Positions 2,318-23,135 of a DNA stretch of 64,000 bases are shown piece after piece; positions within the stretch are counted from its first letter, which is position 1, and each line of letters starts with the position of its first letter. The stretch is from assembly GCF_029227855.1 (NCBI RefSeq), contig NZ_CP074356.1; one strand, given 5' to 3'. Origin of the DNA: Escherichia coli. Its GTDB lineage: Bacteria; Pseudomonadota; Gammaproteobacteria; Enterobacterales; Enterobacteriaceae. The notes under the pieces are model-generated. The model did not search any database, was not told the origin of the DNA, and saw only the letters and a program-made list of their open reading frames with translations. The position numbers were made by a program, and so were the translations under genes.

Positions 2318-2451
2318 AATTCATTCCCTGTATGAATGATTAAAGGTGATTCTACACCATCCACTGCGAACGCAAAACGTACCAGGAGGATGTTTATATT
2401 GATGATATTATGTCGCCCTATAACTATACATGATGTCAATAAGTGACAAAG

Positions 2452-2778
2452 ATGATTAAAACAACGTTACTATTTTTTGCTACTGCGCTGTGTGAAATTA
2501 TTGGATGCTTTCTGCCCTGGTTGTGGTTAAAACGAAACGCCAGTATCTGGCTGTTGCTTCCGGCGGGGATTTCTCTGGCACTGTTTGTCTGGTTGTTAAC
2601 GTTGCATCCTGCGGCGAGTGGGCGTGTTTACGCGGCTTATGGTGGCGTTTATGTCTGCACGGCGTTGATTTGGCTGCGCGTTGTGGATGGCGTGAAACTG
2701 AGTCTTTATGACTGGACGGGGGCGTTGATTGCGCTTTGCGGCATGTTGATCATTGTTGCGGGCTGGGGGCGCGCGTAA
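2452..2778 (+). CDS. ynfA: UPF0060 inner membrane protein YnfA
   Basis: 108-aa hydrophobic ORF from ATG 2452 ([26 protein letters not shown]...), four predicted TM segments. Confidence 0.9.
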
Positions 2779-2982
2779 GGACATAAATCCATTTTATCAA
2801 TAAGATACGAGGAAGTGTCAGCTGACAAAAGGTATTCTATTTCATCTTTTGTCAACCATTCACGACGCAAATATACGCCTTTTTTTGTGATCACTCCGGT
2901 TTTTTTGATCTTCATACTTGTATGGTAGTAGCTCAGTTGCGTAGATTTCATGCATCACGACAAGCGATGCAAGGAATCGAAC

Positions 2983-4197
2983 ATGAAGATCGTAAAGGCT
3001 GAAGTTTTTGTTACCTGTCCGGGGCGTAATTTCGTCACATTAAAAATCACTACTGAGGACGGTATTACGGGCCTTGGGGATGCCACCCTCAATGGACGTG
3101 AGCTTTCCGTGGCCTCTTATTTGCAGGATCACCTTTGTCCGCAGCTTATTGGTCGCGATGCGCACCGTATCGAAGATATCTGGCAGTTTTTCTATAAAGG
3201 TGCTTACTGGCGTCGCGGCCCGGTGACGATGTCGGCCATTTCAGCGGTTGATATGGCGCTGTGGGATATTAAAGCCAAAGCTGCCAACATGCCGCTTTAC
3301 CAGTTACTCGGCGGCGCGTCTCGTGAAGGGGTGATGGTTTATTGCCATACCACCGGTCACAGTATTGATGAAGCTCTGGATGATTATGCCCGTCATCAGG
3401 AGCTGGGATTCAAAGCCATCCGCGTGCAGTGCGGAATCCCTGGTATGAAAACCACATACGGCATGTCGAAAGGTAAAGGTCTGGCTTATGAACCCGCAAC
3501 CAAAGGACAGTGGCCGGAAGAGCAGCTGTGGTCGACGGAGAAATACCTCGATTTCATGCCGAAATTGTTTGACGCGGTACGTAACAAGTTTGGTTTTAAT
3601 GAACATTTGCTGCATGACATGCACCATCGCTTAACGCCTATTGAAGCGGCGCGCTTTGGTAAAAGCATTGAAGATTATCGCATGTTCTGGATGGAAGACC
3701 CGACGCCTGCGGAAAACCAGGAATGCTTCCGTCTCATTCGCCAACATACCGTCACACCCATCGCGGTGGGTGAAGTCTTCAACAGCATCTGGGACTGCAA
3801 GCAACTGATTGAAGAGCAACTTATCGATTATATCCGCACTACGCTGACCCACGCGGGTGGCATTACCGGTATGCGCCGGATTGCCGATTTTGCTTCGCTG
3901 TATCAGGTACGTACTGGCTCACACGGTCCTTCCGATTTGTCACCAGTCTGCATGGCTGCGGCGCTGCACTTTGATCTGTGGGTCCCCAATTTCGGTGTCC
4001 AGGAATACATGGGTTATTCCGAACAAATGCTCGAAGTCTTCCCGCACAACTGGACTTTCGATAACGGCTATATGCATCCGGGAGACAAACCGGGTCTTGG
4101 CATCGAATTCGATGAAAAGCTGGCGGCGAAATATCCCTATGAATCTGCTTATCTACCAGTCGCACGTCTGGAAGATGGCACGCTGTGGAACTGGTAA
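2983..4197 (+). CDS. rspA: starvation-sensing protein RspA (enolase superfamily, mannonate dehydratase-like)
   Basis: 404-aa ORF from ATG 2983 ([40 protein letters not shown]...), enolase-superfamily motifs. Confidence 0.95.
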
Positions 4198-14022: not shown

Positions 14023-14345
14023 AGAGCATTAGTTCAGATGTGAATTGACATTTTCGTGGCACAAGATTAGCGCTAGCGTGGTCGTTTGGTTTGTGCCAAG
14101 AGCGGATAATGCTGACATTCCTATGCACTAATTAACGCAGAGCAAGCCAGTTAGTTGGTTATGGAAGTAAGTTGTAGCCAGCAACTATCACCATCGGAGA
14201 TATTTAGGGGGATGCACTCTAAGTTGTAGTTACTTTATAATGTCACTTTCAAAGCGGAAGCTTGTACAAAAGATGGATAAGCTTTTGTATAGTATGGGAT
14301 TCAAGAATCACTAAAAGATGACAACAGTACTTACAGGATGTGGCT

Positions 14346-14585
14346 ATGATCCGAATTATGATTAGAATATTTTCTTTGACATTCGTTGCTTGCGCTGGCT
14401 TTGCTGCATATCACTTCAATAGTGTGCCATTGATGTTCACTTCTGGTAGCTTTCTTGTAACATTTTTAGGTACATTTATTGTTAATAAAAAAAGTTCAGG
14501 GCATACAATAATTCAAAAAAGCGGTAGCCATTCAAAAAATAATCATACGGTCGTTTTTGGAAATAATGAAAACAAGCGAGGCTGA
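14346..14585 (+). CDS. small two-TM membrane protein, first gene of AT-rich operon
   Basis: ATG 14346 with SD agga; MIRIMIRIFSLTFVACAGFAAYHF... two hydrophobic helices and a basic tail; stop overlaps start region of next gene. Confidence 0.5.
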   Translation: MIRIMIRIFSLTFVACAGFAAYHFNSVPLMFTSGSFLVTFLGTFIVNKKSSGHTIIQKSGSHSKNNHTVVFGNNENKRG

Positions 14586-14587
14586 TC

Positions 14588-15184
14588 ATGGTTGGTGTTA
14601 CTCAAAGGTCAGGGAATTACTCACGTAATGTGCAGGTGGTTGTCGATTCTAACTCTGTTGATATTATAAAGTCTCCATCGATTTTTATGGATCTTGTTGG
14701 TATTTTAGTTGATTCGAATGTTATTGATCCTCGTACAAACAATGACTACGAGCCATATGATATTGAGAATAAAATAGACTTCAATGATGTTATAAAACAT
14801 AGAGAACGTATTGAAGGGTTCTATCTATATTCTTCGATGATAGATAAAGCGTATGAAACATTAAATGAAAGTATGCCTACTGCTAAGGAAACGGCACTGA
14901 AAAGCATCAATTCACGATATCTTGATTGTCAAGGAGATTTATTGCTTAAACATAGAGAAGCGTATAAGAGCTGCAAGGATGCTCAGGAACGGAATAATTT
15001 AAAGATTCAATTGGTAAGAGAGTTTGCAGATTGGATAATAGACAGTGTAATAGAGCACATCATTAAGAAATGCTTAAATTCTCTTATGGCAATGAATTAC
15101 ACAAGCGAAGAAATCGAATGCCATGCTTCTTTTATCGTTTATCATGCATTCGTAGAGTGTAAGATTCTGGAAAAACCAATATGA
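14588..15184 (+). CDS. hypothetical protein, 198 aa (candidate effector/partner of SMC-like ATPase)
   Basis: ATG 14588 with SD gagg; AT-rich codon usage; stop overlaps next start (ATGA). Confidence 0.6.
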   Translation: MVGVTQRSGNYSRNVQVVVDSNSVDIIKSPSIFMDLVGILVDSNVIDPRTNNDYEPYDIENKIDFNDVIKHRERIEGFYLYSSMIDKAYETLNESMPTAKETALKSINSRYLDCQGDLLLKHREAYKSCKDAQERNNLKIQLVREFADWIIDSVIEHIIKKCLNSLMAMNYTSEEIECHASFIVYHAFVECKILEKPI

Positions 15185-15417
15185 TTATCTCTGATGTAAC
15201 AAAACCAAGCCAAACCTTGTATTACCTGGGAGCTCGGTTATTAGAATGCATGAGTTCAAATGCTTATTCGTATGTTGATATTATAGACTTGTATAATGAA
15301 TTCAAATCTAAAAATAACAACTCTTCATTCACGCAATATATTTACACTTTAAATTGGCTATATTTATTAGGCCTGGTTGATGCTAACGAAAATGGAGATT
15401 TGATATTATGTTTTTGA
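15181..15417 (+). CDS. hypothetical small protein, 78 aa (candidate middle component)
   Basis: Translationally coupled to both neighbours: 4-nt overlap upstream, 10-nt overlap downstream. Confidence 0.5.
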   Translation: MIISDVTKPSQTLYYLGARLLECMSSNAYSYVDIIDLYNEFKSKNNNSSFTQYIYTLNWLYLLGLVDANENGDLILCF

Positions 15418-17132
15418 AACGGCTAATAGTCAGTTCTTTCAGGCTTGGAGTGATTCGTGATATCGAATTTCACATTGGCGTTAATTTGATTATTGACCGA
15501 AACACCTCCAGCAAAGAGCAAACTGGAAATGGTGTGGGAAAAACTACTGTATTAAGAGCTTTAGATTTTTGTTTTGGAGCAGAACAACTGAATTTTTATA
15601 CCGATCCTGAATTCAAGAAAGAAAATTCGGTTATAAAAAATTATTTGATAGAGAACGAGATTGAGTTTTGTTTAATTCTCACAAAAGATTTGAATAATAA
15701 AACTGCACCAGTAATAAAAATTAAGCGTAAAATTACATCTGAGACTAATAAAACGAAGGTTATAGCCTCAATAAATGAAGAGTCCTATACGAAGGCTAAA
15801 GATTTCAACGAGGCTTTAAAAAGAACATTATATCTTGATTCCGCGATAAAACCGACCATACGAGAGATTATGGGACGTGTTATTCGAAATACGCATGACA
15901 AGATGTCGAACGCATTAAAAACGATAAAAATGGGTTCTAATACACAATATGAAACGTTAAATCTGTTTATGTTTGGGTTCGGTAACTCACAGATTCTGGA
16001 TGAAAAACAGTCAGTGACTAAAGCCTATAAACTGGCGAAATCCGATTATGAAGTAATTACTCGCCATCGCTCAAAGAATGCTTTGGAACAAGCTATTGCA
16101 ATTATAAATAGAGATATTATAGCACAAGAAGAGTTAATTTCTAATTTTCAAGTGGCAGACTCTTATAATGATATGCTTGCTGAGTTAAATGAGTTAAAAA
16201 TTAAAATTAGTGAAGTTTCTATCACACTATCATCTTTGGAGTTTAAGCAAAAATTAAACGATAAGGCTATACTAGATCTGGAAAAAAGTCATGAAAATAT
16301 AAATACACTAGATCTACAGAAGTTGTACTTAGAAGCAACTGATCGGTTAGGTAACTTAAACAAAGAGTTTACTGAGCTACTTTCGTTTCATAATAAAATG
16401 CTTGTAAAAAAAGCTGAGTTTATTAGAAAACAAATGCAGCCAGTGCTGCAAGAAATTTCCAAATATAAAGATGAACTAAATAATTTATTGACTCAAGAAT
16501 CAGAGCTTTTAAAGAGTTTGTCTTCGCATGGGACATTGGCAGACCTGCAAATAATGCAAAAAAAATTAAATTCATTATTTGAAGAAAAAGGTGGGCTTGA
16601 AGCTGGACTACTTCAAATCCAAGAGATGGAGAACAACTTTAATATACTGAAAGCAAAGTTTAATGATGTGTCAGATAGATTAAAATCTAAACTTGACGAT
16701 TTTAACAAACGTCTTGCGCTATTCAATTCCTATTTTTCTTTATATACTAAAAAATTATATCAGGATGAATATATTCTTTCCTATAAAGATTCCTCCGGTT
16801 CTTTCGTTTTTACCATTGAACCTTTAGGAACTTTGCTCACATCAGGTAATCAGGGAGAAGGAAAAAAGAAAGCCCAGGTTGCCTCTTTAGATTTTGCCTA
16901 TTTATCTGTCCAGGAGTCTTTAGAAGCCAGAACACCACGTTTTATAGCTCATGATGGAATTGAGGCAATTCATGTAAATCAAATAAATAAGTTATTCGAG
17001 ATAGCTTCGGGGATTAATGGTCAATATATATTGGCTATTCTTAAAGACAAGTTGGAGAATATTGATCAAGACTTCATCAATAATAGTGTTGTGCTTGAGC
17101 TTGGGGAGGACGATAAGTTTTTTAGGCTTTAA
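15408..17132 (+). CDS. SMC-like ABC-type ATPase with long coiled-coil insert, 574 aa
   Basis: N-terminal RecF/SMC-like head with Walker A TGNGVGKTT (about 15522-15548); roughly 230-aa K/E/L-rich coiled-coil region; C-terminal signature-like SGNQGEG and Walker-B-like RFIAHDG followed by IEAIH. Confidence 0.7.
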   Translation: MFLKRLIVSSFRLGVIRDIEFHIGVNLIIDRNTSSKEQTGNGVGKTTVLRALDFCFGAEQLNFYTDPEFKKENSVIKNYLIENEIEFCLILTKDLNNKTAPVIKIKRKITSETNKTKVIASINEESYTKAKDFNEALKRTLYLDSAIKPTIREIMGRVIRNTHDKMSNALKTIKMGSNTQYETLNLFMFGFGNSQILDEKQSVTKAYKLAKSDYEVITRHRSKNALEQAIAIINRDIIAQEELISNFQVADSYNDMLAELNELKIKISEVSITLSSLEFKQKLNDKAILDLEKSHENINTLDLQKLYLEATDRLGNLNKEFTELLSFHNKMLVKKAEFIRKQMQPVLQEISKYKDELNNLLTQESELLKSLSSHGTLADLQIMQKKLNSLFEEKGGLEAGLLQIQEMENNFNILKAKFNDVSDRLKSKLDDFNKRLALFNSYFSLYTKKLYQDEYILSYKDSSGSFVFTIEPLGTLLTSGNQGEGKKKAQVASLDFAYLSVQESLEARTPRFIAHDGIEAIHVNQINKLFEIASGINGQYILAILKDKLENIDQDFINNSVVLELGEDDKFFRL

Positions 17133-17577
17133 GATTTGTAATTTGATAGATATGTAGATATCATTTTTCTCGCTCAAAACTGACAGTCAGATTTGAGCGA
17201 ATTGCTTATGTAAGTATTTCGCAGAATCATGCCATTTATATTTATTAGAACATACGTACTTTAAATGTGGGAGGCTGTCATGTTGGTTCTTAAATGTTCG
17301 CTGACTATTGCGGTGGTGCGGGTAATTTATTGTTCTGTTATTCTTATGGATCGCCTTTCTGACTGATTTCATATTGGCGAGATAACGGGAGTTAAGTAGA
17401 ATGCCTGCGGGTGCTTGAGGCTATCTGCCTCGGGCATGAACACCAACGGCAGATAGAGAAAAGCCCCAGTTAACATTACGCGTCCTGCAAGACGCTTAAC
17501 ATTAATCTGAGGCCAATTTCATGCTAGACACATGTAGGTTAGCCTCTTACGTGCCGAAAGGCAAGGAGAAGCAGGCT

Positions 17578-20147: not shown

Positions 20148-20672
20148 TTATTGTTTAACCCATAATAATTCATTGACATTGAATCCCAACTTTTGAGCGG
20201 TTCGCACATAGTCTGCTTTTACTTTATCTGGAATAGTTGGGGTCCTTGCCAGAATCCATAGGTATTCTCTGTTCGAACCACTAACAAGAGCATACTTATA
20301 CTCATCATCCAGTTTGATTACATTATAGCCACCATAGAAGGGGCCAAAAAACGAAACCTTCAACGCTGCAGTTTTAGTATCTCCAGTAAAGTATGCTTTA
20401 CCTTCGCTCTCGCTCCATTTATTTTTCGTTGGATCGTATCCACGGTTAAGTACACGAATCCCTCCGTCGTTCCGTTTTCCATAAGTAGCGCTGACCTGTT
20501 CCAGACCACGTTCGAACCGGTTCTCGAGGCGAGCTATTTCATACCATTTTCCGAGGTAGCGGTTGGCGTCAAAATTTGTAATCGGCTGCACACCTTTAGG
20601 TGGTGTCGGGGCCTTACATGCTATAAGAGTGAAAGAGAGTGCAATGCCAGTCAACACAGGCCATAACTTCAT
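20148..20672 (-). CDS. bacterial lipocalin Blc-like outer-membrane lipoprotein
   Basis: ATG 20672 with SD agga; lipobox LIACK; lipocalin motifs NFDANRYLGKWYEIAR and FFGPFYGGYNVI. Confidence 0.85.
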   Translation of the reverse strand: MKLWPVLTGIALSFTLIACKAPTPPKGVQPITNFDANRYLGKWYEIARLENRFERGLEQVSATYGKRNDGGIRVLNRGYDPTKNKWSESEGKAYFTGDTKTAALKVSFFGPFYGGYNVIKLDDEYKYALVSGSNREYLWILARTPTIPDKVKADYVRTAQKLGFNVNELLWVKQ

Positions 20673-20864
20673 AATCAATCCTGTACTTTTGATAGTTGAG
20701 AGTAAGTATGAAAGATAGATGATTACGACCGATCACTTAAAGAACTTTCATACTATATTAGGAATAGTCCATAACAGAAAAATTGTCAGTGATGACGTCA
20801 GAAAGGCAATTTATTCCGTGCACTACACAGTTTATGTGTTAATGAATTAGTCAAGGGGGAGGAT

Positions 20865-21824
20865 ATGATAAAAAAACCTGTGATTGGAATCAGCGGTTGT
20901 TTGGCCGGTTCTGCTGTTCGTTTTGATGGTGGTCACAAAAGAGCTGACTTTTTAATGGACAAATTAGTGGAATGGGTAACATTCAGACCAGTATGTCCGG
21001 AAATGGCTATAGGGCTGCCAGTTCCGCGTCCTGCTCTACGTCTTGTGCGCTCGAAGCAAGGAAATATACGGATGTGTTTCAGCCACGACCAGAATGAGGA
21101 TGTGACAGAGAGAATGACAGAGTTTAGTCGTTCTTATATGCACAAATTAAAGGATGTATCGGGGTTTGTGGTTTGTGCTAAATCTCCCAGCTGTGGCATG
21201 GAGCGCGTGCGTGTCTATGATGAAAATGGTAATCGAGGTCGTAAAGATGGAGTGGGACTATTTACGAGCACTTTGATGGAAAAGTTTTCCTGGCTACCGG
21301 TTGAAGAGGATGGGCGATTACATGATCCAGTGCTTCGTGAGAATTTTGTTGAAAGAGTTTTTGCTTTGCATGAGCTCAATCACCTTTACAAGGAGAAATT
21401 ATCAAGAAGAGAGTTATTAGCTTTTCATAGTCGTTATAAGCTTCAGTTGTTGGCGCATAGTCAGGCAGGCTATAAAGATATGGGACCATTTGTGGCTGCA
21501 ATACACGAGTGGGCGGACCTTGAATCATACTTTGAGGTGTATCGTGATAAGCTGATGGCGATTCTCAGAAAACCTGCATCACGTAAAAATCACACGAATG
21601 TGCTGATGCATATACAGGGGTATTTTAGTAATTACTTAAGTACACGCCAGCGTAAAGAGTTGACCGAGGTTATACTTAACTATCGCTTTGGCACATTGCC
21701 TCTTCTTGCGCCGTTGACTCTGCTGAAGCATTATCTGGGTGAGTATCCTAATGATTACTTGCTTACACAGAATTACTTCGATCCCTATCCGGAAGAACTG
21801 GCTCTAAGACTGATGGTGAATTAA
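20865..21824 (+). CDS. DUF523 (TudS-like) plus DUF1722 (YbgA-like) fusion protein
   Basis: 319-aa ORF with SD agggggagg; N-terminal Cys-containing GISGCLAG...CPEM...SPSCG; C-terminal half YbgA-like. Confidence 0.75.
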   Translation: MIKKPVIGISGCLAGSAVRFDGGHKRADFLMDKLVEWVTFRPVCPEMAIGLPVPRPALRLVRSKQGNIRMCFSHDQNEDVTERMTEFSRSYMHKLKDVSGFVVCAKSPSCGMERVRVYDENGNRGRKDGVGLFTSTLMEKFSWLPVEEDGRLHDPVLRENFVERVFALHELNHLYKEKLSRRELLAFHSRYKLQLLAHSQAGYKDMGPFVAAIHEWADLESYFEVYRDKLMAILRKPASRKNHTNVLMHIQGYFSNYLSTRQRKELTEVILNYRFGTLPLLAPLTLLKHYLGEYPNDYLLTQNYFDPYPEELALRLMVN

Positions 21825-22230
21825 CTGTATGCGATATCATCTGAAAGTGATGAGTTCCTGTATGCAGGATATTTACAATCGTAAAAACTACACTATGATA
21901 CCCATAGTGTCAGTTTGTATAAAAATCCTGTTCACGCTGAAGAAAACATTGAGATGCAATTTAATGTTGGTAAACATACCAGCCCCAAAAGATTTTATTC
22001 AATCTGTTTTTATATGAAGATATTTCAAGTGAATATTAAGAGTATATAATATTATTATTGCACGCAGCTATTATAATATAACAGATTAGTTTAATGATTT
22101 GTTTTTTGTGAGTTAAACACATGGTTTTATAGTTGTGATGCAATGAGATTTTCCTTATTGTTGAACTGGCGAATATTGATTTTCCACCTATACTTACCTG
22201 GTGTAACCCCAGTGATATCAGGTGGATAAT

Positions 22231-22944
22231 ATGCCATACATATGTTCTGTCATTTTGGTGTTGAACTCGTTTGGTGTCCGAATTGGTAAAGAAGATATTT
22301 TGTTTAAAAAAGGAAGTGCTGTCCTCATCGAATACAATTTAAAAGATCTTTTTTCGTCAAATACAGATCATCTAATGATCGTAGATGTTGAGGAGAAAAC
22401 AGTTAATGATTTCTTTAAAAACTACACACTCTCACCTTTTTCTGTAAGAAGGTTTTATCCGGCATACTTGATAGTAGAATGTGAAGGTTTTTCTTTGTTA
22501 AAGAACTTGGTTGCATGCTTGAATTGTGATAGCAAAACCGTGGATGTGGTTAGAAATCAAATATCACTTGCATGTCTTGCTGTCTTATCTTCAGAGAAAA
22601 TAGTGCAAAGTTTTTTGTTCGGAAGTCTTAATAGCTTAGGTTGTAAAGTTAAGGCTATTATTCACTCGGATATCTCAGCGTCATGGAGACTTTGTGATAT
22701 ATCTTCAAGATTATATATGAGCGAGAGTTTGTTAAAAAGAAAATTAAAAGACGAAGGGGTATCGTTTAGTAGATTAATTCTTGAAGAACGAATGATGATG
22801 GCGCAAAGATTATTAATTTACAGTAACCATACTGTCGGCAAGGTGGCGGGAATATGCGGGTATGACAATGCATCATATTTTGTAAGTGTTTTTAGAAGAT
22901 ATTTTGGTGTGCCTCCGCACCAATATTTATCAAGATTTTCTTAG
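22231..22944 (+). CDS. AraC-family transcriptional regulator (AppY-like)
   Basis: C-terminal AraC HTH (GKVAGICGYDNASYFVSVFRRYFGVPPHQY); N-terminal half resembles remembered AppY; AT-rich. Confidence 0.8.
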   Translation: MPYICSVILVLNSFGVRIGKEDILFKKGSAVLIEYNLKDLFSSNTDHLMIVDVEEKTVNDFFKNYTLSPFSVRRFYPAYLIVECEGFSLLKNLVACLNCDSKTVDVVRNQISLACLAVLSSEKIVQSFLFGSLNSLGCKVKAIIHSDISASWRLCDISSRLYMSESLLKRKLKDEGVSFSRLILEERMMMAQRLLIYSNHTVGKVAGICGYDNASYFVSVFRRYFGVPPHQYLSRFS

Positions 22945-23135
22945 AAGATATGATGTGATGGCATTTTATAAAGTTGTTTTTTTGAAGTGTAAGATTATAC
23001 GATATTTTTAGCTACGCCAGAATAATTGCTGGCGTTTTTCTTTTTGAATAGATGTTCGGGCCTTACGCTAATGTAATTTTTTTCCTTCTTCGAACCAAAC
23101 CGTGTACACCATCCGTTATCTGCGGAGGTGAGGCT

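Follow-up and report, generated by a model that had tools for sequence, protein, structure and literature searches.

Results

The four genes of the operon

In this study, we describe a four-gene operon carried on the plus strand of a lambdoid prophage in Escherichia coli (contig NZ_CP074356.1, assembly GCF_029227855.1; "the window" is the whole stretch of 64,000 nucleotides that was analysed, and coordinates refer to it unless a locus number such as L001 is given). We show that its first two products, a small membrane protein and an adaptor with the Pfam domain CTD10, share a motif of about 20 residues which is matched within each related locus and is unrelated across lineages. The operon very likely encodes a system of the ABC-three-component (ABC-3C)/Lamassu type, a class that is treated as one superfamily in the literature as far as ABC-3C and type II Lamassu are concerned. 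An earlier reading of the stretch (the sequence-only reading) had already proposed a defence system of this class, and the profile and structure searches that it suggested as checks support the assignment by placing genes 2-4 in ABC-3C/Lamassu families (PADLOC and Pfam: CTD10, MC6, DUF2326) and by matching gene 4 to YydD and LmuB chains in Foldseek, that is, to an SMC/Rad50-type fold. The class itself is known and already annotated in RefSeq, where the PGAP pipeline names genes 2-4 as ABC-three-component proteins (gene 3 as "ABC-three component system middle component 6"); the assignment is correct and is not new. The features are listed in Table 1.

Table 1. Features of the operon and its surroundings in the window, and motif pairs of five further loci
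Feature	Position	Strand	Description	Basis
Gene 1	14346..14585	+	79-aa membrane protein, proposed effector in trans	Open reading frame, hydropathy
Gene 2	14588..15184	+	198-aa LmuA-like adaptor, CTD10 without enzymatic N-terminal domain	Pfam
Gene 3	15181..15417	+	78-aa middle component MC6, LmuC-class subunit	Pfam MC6 1.9e-13, MC7 4.7e-4
Gene 4	15408..17132	+	574-aa SMC/Rad50-like ABC ATPase (DUF2326, YydD family), short LmuB-like sensor	Pfam, PADLOC, AlphaFold2, Foldseek
Effector-side motif	14508..14567	+	Gene 1 residues 55-74, IIQKSGSHSKNNHTVVFGNN	Local alignment to CTD10 N-terminus
Sensor-side motif	14597..14656	+	Gene 2 residues 4-23, VTQRSGNYSRNVQVVVDSNS	Outside the CTD10 domain; matches gene 1 tail
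AT-rich cargo block	14040..17270	+	Inserted between DUF977 gene (prophage replication module) and hokD	
TATAAT hexamer	14236..14241	+	Possible -10 element of the operon promoter (candidate)	Read from the sequence
L015 motif			Membrane-protein tail TGYQAENMTVNN; CTD10 N-terminus TGYQADRMTVHN	
L029 motif			Membrane-protein tail IENSGDNKGTMSGIITGGV; CTD10 N-terminus LDNSGDNTGTIAGAIEGNV	
L027 motif			Membrane-protein tail SVNNKGVIGGSISGGVSNN; CTD10 N-terminus SVNNKGIIAGKIEGDVTNN	
L036 motif			Membrane-protein tail KQSIKGDDNQQAGGDIKN; CTD10 N-terminus KQNIKGNNNQQAGGNITN	
L032 motif			Membrane-protein tail NTTVRNQKVGKGSRVINGNNG; CTD10 N-terminus NTTITNQTIGNKSAVINGDDG	

The last gene of the operon encodes a coiled-coil ABC ATPase resembling structural maintenance of chromosomes (SMC) proteins, as is found in ABC-3C systems, and it has the features of a Lamassu LmuB-type sensor. 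Its C-terminus matches Pfam DUF2326 (4e-14) and its full length the PADLOC candidate PDC-M68B (1.3e-41); among PHROGs it matched an unnamed family and nothing else. The Walker A motif is GNGVGKTT, with G40, N41, G44, K45, T46 and T47 invariant in 45 homologues, and in the AlphaFold2 (AF2) model (mean confidence, pLDDT, 83.7) helices over residues 194-451 separate the N- and C-terminal halves of the head, in agreement with the SMC-type head with Walker A and the coiled coil of about 230 residues that had been claimed beforehand. YydD was the best structural match in Foldseek (5e-22, TM-score 0.57), and LmuB chains matched at 2.7e-14 to 1.4e-11. No sequence-level match to PDB chains was found for the window system. 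The gene 4 sequence contains no CxxC of a zinc hook, and its length agrees with that of short LmuB proteins, which have about 600 aa (Haudiquet et al., 2025, preprint).

The middle component (gene 3, MC6) and the CTD-family first component (gene 2) of an ABC-3C system are both present. Gene 2 matches CTD10, "C-terminal domain 10 of ABC-3C systems", at 5.5e-9 over residues 36-195, and its fold appears to be similar to that of LmuA. Just about 35 residues precede this domain, and no domain match was found there with PADLOC, NCBIfam, PHROGs or Pfam, so that the effector domain which ABC-3C systems carry fused N-terminal to the CTD is missing. Close homologues of gene 2 are all 195-199 aa long, and in the AF2 monomer model residues 1-21 have a pLDDT below 50 and no secondary structure. 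A Csm6 identity for gene 2 (PADLOC, E 0.011) was dropped, as neither Pfam nor the fold searches supported it. None of the four proteins passes a threshold in NCBIfam. The sequence-only reading had found no recognisable motif in the partner proteins; genes 2 and 3 belong to known families, and gene 1 has no significant match. The layout of effector, middle component and SMC ATPase that it had given for known systems is present as far as the order CTD10, MC6, ATPase goes, and departs from it in that the CTD10 protein has no enzymatic effector domain.

Gene 1 starts with ATG at 14346; from the GTG at 14340 it would have 81 aa. It has two hydrophobic segments by Kyte-Doolittle hydropathy (residues ~1-23 and 27-47), as expected of the two-transmembrane (TM) protein proposed earlier, followed by a hydrophilic C-terminal tail that is predicted to be cytoplasmic. 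No significant match to gene 1 was found in any library, with none at all in PADLOC and NCBIfam, and tblastn against GenBank phages gave no match. The marginal matches were phrog_30248 (PHROGs, E 0.035) and Hol_Tox (Pfam, E 0.028), the latter too weak to use. In each of the 14 loci examined, the short CTD10 gene directly follows a gene for a membrane protein of 47-84 aa, which overlaps it or is at most 10 nt away; some partners, such as that of L036 (47 aa), consist of no more than a single TM helix and the motif. Genes 1 and 2 are not one split or frameshifted gene, which is ruled out by separate, coupled open reading frames in varying frames in 14/14 loci. In a distant system (L034, 2522-3278) the N-terminus of the partner is short and amphipathic (MLKSIWSFLKGIFGG) with no clear TM helix, and its motif is still common with the CTD10 protein; the effector module may therefore vary.

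A motif shared by the membrane protein and the adaptor

The tail of the membrane protein matches the N-terminus of the CTD10 protein in 14 of the 14 loci with a short CTD10 protein. In the window the match covers 20 aa, with a local alignment score of 43 and a z of 6.3 against composition-preserving shuffles. Scoring of motif pairs took in 11 of the 14 loci: the mean local alignment score was 54.3 for cognate and 24.9 for non-cognate pairs, the cognate sum was reached by none of 100,000 permutations (p<=1e-5), and cognate pairs had z values of 2.8-9.8 against composition-preserving shuffles. The motifs are unrelated across lineages (TQ+GGxxSxNxQ; TGYQAxxMTVxN; NSGDNxGTxxGxIxG; IKGxxNQQAGGxI) and matched within each locus. 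In the enterobacterial class of motifs, tail and N-terminus co-vary, being SG/SG and VV/VV in E. coli, and GG/GG and NNY/NNY in Pectobacterium, and a G-to-S change in the E. coli lineage is found in both partners. The DNA segments encoding the two window motifs are 47% identical, with 7 of 20 third codon positions identical, which rules out a recent tandem duplication as the origin of the motif and indicates that the similarity has been kept at the protein level.

The N-termini of the short forms are diverse strings in which N, Q and G alternate. In the first 27 residues of 141 short-form cluster representatives, G (3.2x), N (2.5x) and Q (2.5x) are more frequent than in the rest of the same proteins, and L (0.47x), K (0.6x) and P (0.75x) are less frequent; the same composition bias has been reported for bacterial amyloid signalling sequences (BASS) (Dyrka et al.). 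As in BASS and their fungal counterparts (FASS), a motif of at least 15 aa is common to adjacent collinear genes; N, Q and G abound in it, and L, K and P are scarce. In place of the NOD-like receptor (NLR; NACHT or NB-ARC) and the Bell or HeLo effector of those pairs, a CTD10 protein with an SMC-like ATPase and a bare TM protein are found.

Related systems

Three architectures were found among systems with the same MC6 and DUF2326 genes. In the first, the CTD10 protein is an HNH-CTD10 fusion of 268-276 aa (L014, L016, L030, L031), and L030 is matched by PADLOC PDC-M68A at 8.5e-32. In the second, it is a restriction endonuclease (REase)-like-CTD10 fusion of 322-326 aa (L021-L025 and L028, at ~2319-3296 on phage and prophage contigs); the N-terminal 175 residues of the L025 protein match PADLOC Aga_REase-PNTD1-PNTD2 at 9.4e-23, and this effector may be the "SMEK" class of short Lamassu. 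The third architecture, that of the window, combines a short CTD10 protein with the upstream membrane gene, which is lacking in the HNH and REase-like sister systems. The window proteins gave no match to PDC-M68A at E<=1. The ATPase and MC6 are 29-53% identical across systems.

A scan of GTDB species genomes with CTD10 patterns yielded four loci, all in Enterobacterales; as these patterns were too specific for the wider family, the ATPase profile was run on IMG/VR instead. With a profile of the CTD10 protein, 501 proteins were matched at E<=1e-3 among 1.84 billion cluster representatives at 50% identity, and among the best 150 of these 501 matches 141 are short (170-230 aa) and 6 have at least 260 aa. 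Orthologous four-gene sets lie in a P4-like satellite, between the integrase gene and psu/ogr-delta (L003/L008/L013, from Phaseolibacter flectens and an IMG/VR contig; L003 5756-8533), and in a Pectobacterium island. Other such sets adjoin AbiEii, a NotI-type restriction-modification pair or a SIR2 gene. Separately, an HNH-CTD10 version in Pleionea sp. CnH1-48 (L016 1-6698) adjoins TnsA-like, Mu-transposase-C (TnsB-like) and TniB genes and is apparently cargo of a Tn7-like transposon.

Operon layout and prophage setting

The prophage in the window is Qin-like and integrated beside ynfA/rspAB. As the sequence-only reading had stated, four coupled plus-strand genes lie, at the coordinates that it gave, between the replication module, here its DUF977 gene, and hokD/rem/Q, in a block that is visibly AT-rich (GC 0.337, compared with 0.464 in the remaining window upstream and 0.492 downstream). 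Its claim of overlapping stop and start codons holds at the junctions of genes 2/3 (4 nt) and 3/4 (10 nt); genes 1 and 2 are separated by 2 nt. The TATAAT hexamer that it had placed at about 14237 is there, and it does not appear in the list of the consensus promoter scan because its -35 element is weak. The terminator scan found no intrinsic terminator after 17132. Homology to other E. coli prophages restarts at ~17270 (matches H17-H20, query 3231-3361).

The same DUF977-hokD slot of a prophage in E. coli 2013C-4991 (L035 3311-4751) holds genes for a SMODS nucleotidyltransferase and a SLATT membrane protein, a CBASS-like pair, which marks the slot as an exchangeable hotspot of defence cargo, as had been stated beforehand. 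In the Qin prophage of K-12 the same position is occupied by relBE. The block was found in 16 of 5,426 complete E. coli genomes with an identity of 91.8-100% (at least 98.5% in 15 of the 16 copies), and in E. coli KK05-19 (NZ_CM144239.1 4724286-4728908, matches H9/H10) the operon is split by an IS3-family element. Downstream of the gene for the Q antiterminator, the DNA is AT-rich a second time (~20150-22950 of the window, L001 18109-20905; GC 0.31-0.34 around 21750-23000); this stretch encodes lipocalin-family, YbgA-family and helix-turn-helix proteins and may be further prophage cargo.

Discussion

Proposed mechanism

The presence of a Lamassu-type sensor together with the gene-pair signature of amyloid signalling in one operon leads us to propose a templating mechanism. 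In Lamassu, the domain through which LmuA oligomerises is sequestered by LmuB2-LmuC; the sensing of DNA ends frees LmuA, which tetramerises and thereby has its nuclease switched on. In HET-S/NWD2, Bell/NLR and Bab/Agp of E. coli, oligomerisation of the sensor brings its N-terminal motifs together in a cross-beta nucleus that templates the identical C-terminal motif of a membrane-targeting protein encoded by the neighbouring gene. The liberation and tetramerisation of an LmuA-like protein would supply just the oligomerisation step that nucleates such a templating motif. By analogy with the solved Lamassu complexes, we infer that the ATPase (LmuB-like) and MC6 (LmuC-like) would form the sensor and sequester the CTD10 protein, in which the disordered N/Q/G-rich motif of about 20 residues would replace the N-terminal nuclease domain of LmuA. 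The sensor would let the adaptor go on meeting structures of phage DNA, for instance ends or replication intermediates; the freed adaptor would oligomerise, and its motifs could cluster into a cross-beta (amyloid-like) nucleus that recruits and templates the tails of gene 1. The TM helices would thus be driven together and the membrane permeabilised, so that the cell would die before the phage matures. On balance we favour this interpretation, that is, a four-gene abortive-infection system of the short-Lamassu/ABC-3C type in which oligomerisation of the adaptor templates a membrane effector through an amyloid-like motif. That gene 1 is the effector of the system and is coupled through the motif is a part of it that we consider quite likely.

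Several points weigh against this interpretation. Amyloid formation is argued from sequence logic, and AF2 presents the motif as a low-confidence coil; true amyloid templating as the form of coupling is a possibility towards which we lean slightly less than away from it. None of the small membrane partners is a Bell or HeLo-like domain or matches a family. Two of the 11 cognate pairs are weak: that of L033 has a z of 2.8, and that of L004, compared within the related enterobacterial class, ranks second in its row and fourth in its column. The match of gene 4 to the PADLOC LmuB models is weak (6e-4), and in its Walker B motif, FIAHDG, a glycine (residue 517) follows the aspartate, whereas the family consensus, FIxHDQ, agrees with the hhhhD[Q/S/T/E] of short Lamassu (Haudiquet et al., 2025, preprint). 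PADLOC carries only the HNH version (PDC-M68), as a candidate. No experimental work on the window system or on any short-CTD10 system was found in the literature searched, and no description there of the four-gene variant with its trans membrane partner and paired motif; the founding ABC-3C paper (Krishnan et al., 2020, NAR) lay outside that search, so that a prior mention in it is possible.

The motifs might pair constitutively as an ordinary, non-amyloid beta-sheet and anchor the sensor complex to the inner membrane, for instance close to where phage DNA enters, with defence arising from DNA binding by the ATPase or from a host factor. Such a membrane tether is in keeping with the fact that motif matching proves an interaction logic and not templating, with AF2 monomer models that are uninformative on the structure of the motif, and with small proteins that have no recognisable toxin domain. 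We nevertheless regard it as unlikely. Heterotypic docking needs no resemblance between the partners, and self-similar N/Q/G-rich sequences are typical of in-register stacking. Moreover, the motif stands in the exact place of the HNH or REase effector domain of the sister systems, which argues that it stands in for the effector, and the L036 partner, with one TM helix and a motif, resembles oligomerising membrane toxins in architecture.

A second alternative is that both motifs compete for one groove on the ATPase/MC6 or on a phage protein, and resemble each other through a common receptor. This would likewise give similarity within a locus, and Lamassu is known to sequester parts of LmuA. Yet the motifs differ wholly between lineages whereas the ATPase and MC6 remain recognisably conserved, and a conserved pocket is not expected to co-vary so fast; low-complexity N/Q/G composition is also atypical of peptides that bind a groove, and we hold this explanation to be very improbable. 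Slightly weaker still is the view that the operon is an inert remnant or has a prophage role (superinfection exclusion, lysis timing or DNA maintenance) with an incidental small open reading frame upstream, which could draw on the clade that "seemingly lost the effector domain" (Haudiquet et al.), on the rarity of the operon in E. coli and on its IS3-interrupted copy, but which does not sit well with the dominance of the short form in the CTD10 family, with coupled open reading frames that are intact across Enterobacterales and also on metagenome and prophage contigs of unrelated origin, with a small gene and motif kept in every one of the 14 loci and co-varying with the partner, with a third-codon-position divergence that shows selection at the protein level, or with the defence-type neighbourhoods.

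Under the templating interpretation the findings bear on a broad family. Few defence families are as widespread as Lamassu, whose activation through the release and oligomerisation of its effector was solved recently; an effector-less clade has been noted and left unexplained in the literature, and the paired motif gives a testable candidate for its effector. The motif also joins two separate fields, SMC-based DNA sensing and amyloid-type death signalling. Tentatively, and with rather less than even confidence, we suggest that the short-CTD10 systems may form a large Lamassu branch that has gone unrecognised; its DNA sensor, of the SMC type, would pass the signal on to a minimal membrane executioner by prion-like templating. 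If so, the effector-less clade would be explained, and amyloid signalling would no longer be confined to NLR/TGP sensors but would take in SMC ATPases of ordinary unicellular bacteria and of phages and satellites. Being hypervariable and matched within each locus, the motif would give every system a private address code and so insulate systems that reside in one cell from each other, and the locus-specific motifs would be natural orthogonal protein-protein "wires" from sensors to membrane effectors. At 3.2 kb the system is small, E. coli is a native host, and its motifs are short enough to be mutated, swapped or synthesised, so that the hypothesis is directly testable.

Comparison with known systems

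The closest annotated relative, PDC-M68 (HNH-CTD10), has the same ATPase family, MC6, CTD10 coupling domain and gene order. The window system differs from it in lacking the HNH domain of PDC-M68A, in place of which there are a motif of ~20 residues and a separate membrane-protein gene; because of this replacement, two of the four genes have no counterpart among the PADLOC v2 models. YydB of Bacillus subtilis is presumably a phosphoesterase-type effector. In the YydD-YydB pair (PDB 9a6c, an integrative model), YydD is the best structural match of gene 4 and both are DUF2326 proteins, whereas the modelled partner of YydD is YydB and not a motif-bearing adaptor with a membrane protein.

With Lamassu LmuACB of Salmonella enterica and DdmABC of Vibrio cholerae, the window system shares the SMC/Rad50-like LmuB fold, in which the coiled coil is short and a zinc hook is missing, as well as a small middle component and possibly an LmuA-type C-terminal domain, and the logic of sequestration, release and oligomerisation is likely the same. 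It differs from them in the lack of Cap4 or any other enzymatic domain, in the presence of a fourth gene and in having CTD10 and MC6 instead of CTD7 or CTD12 and MC3. Among short Lamassu, whose effectors include HNH and SMEK, "Clade O" has a full LmuB and LmuC and an LmuA that lost its effector domain (Haudiquet et al., 2025, preprint). The window system agrees with this account, and we infer from the account, not from sequence, that it belongs to the clade; the preprint makes no mention of a membrane partner or a shared motif.

The resemblance to amyloid signalling systems lies in the arrangement of the gene pair. In the Bell/NLR BASS pairs and in fungal HET-S/NWD2, the C-terminus of the effector has a motif of ~20-25 aa in common with the N-terminus of the receptor, both are encoded by collinear genes that overlap or nearly so, the motifs are N/Q/G-rich and L/K-poor, and there are many pair-matched motif families. 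The receptor of the window system is not a NACHT or NB-ARC NLR, and the hosts of short-CTD10 systems are unicellular Enterobacterales, phages and satellites, whereas those of BASS are multicellular bacteria. Bab/Agp of E. coli ECOR25 (BASS11) differs in its motif sequences and in having a Bell-like helical domain where the proposed effector here is a bare protein with one or two TM helices. In both cases, one gene encodes a small protein whose N-terminal helix is hydrophobic and whose C-terminus bears a motif, and the gene next to it a sensor with the same motif at the N-terminus. Bab/Agp, which acts by abortive infection, is likewise cargo of a prophage hotspot, with killing directed at the membrane.

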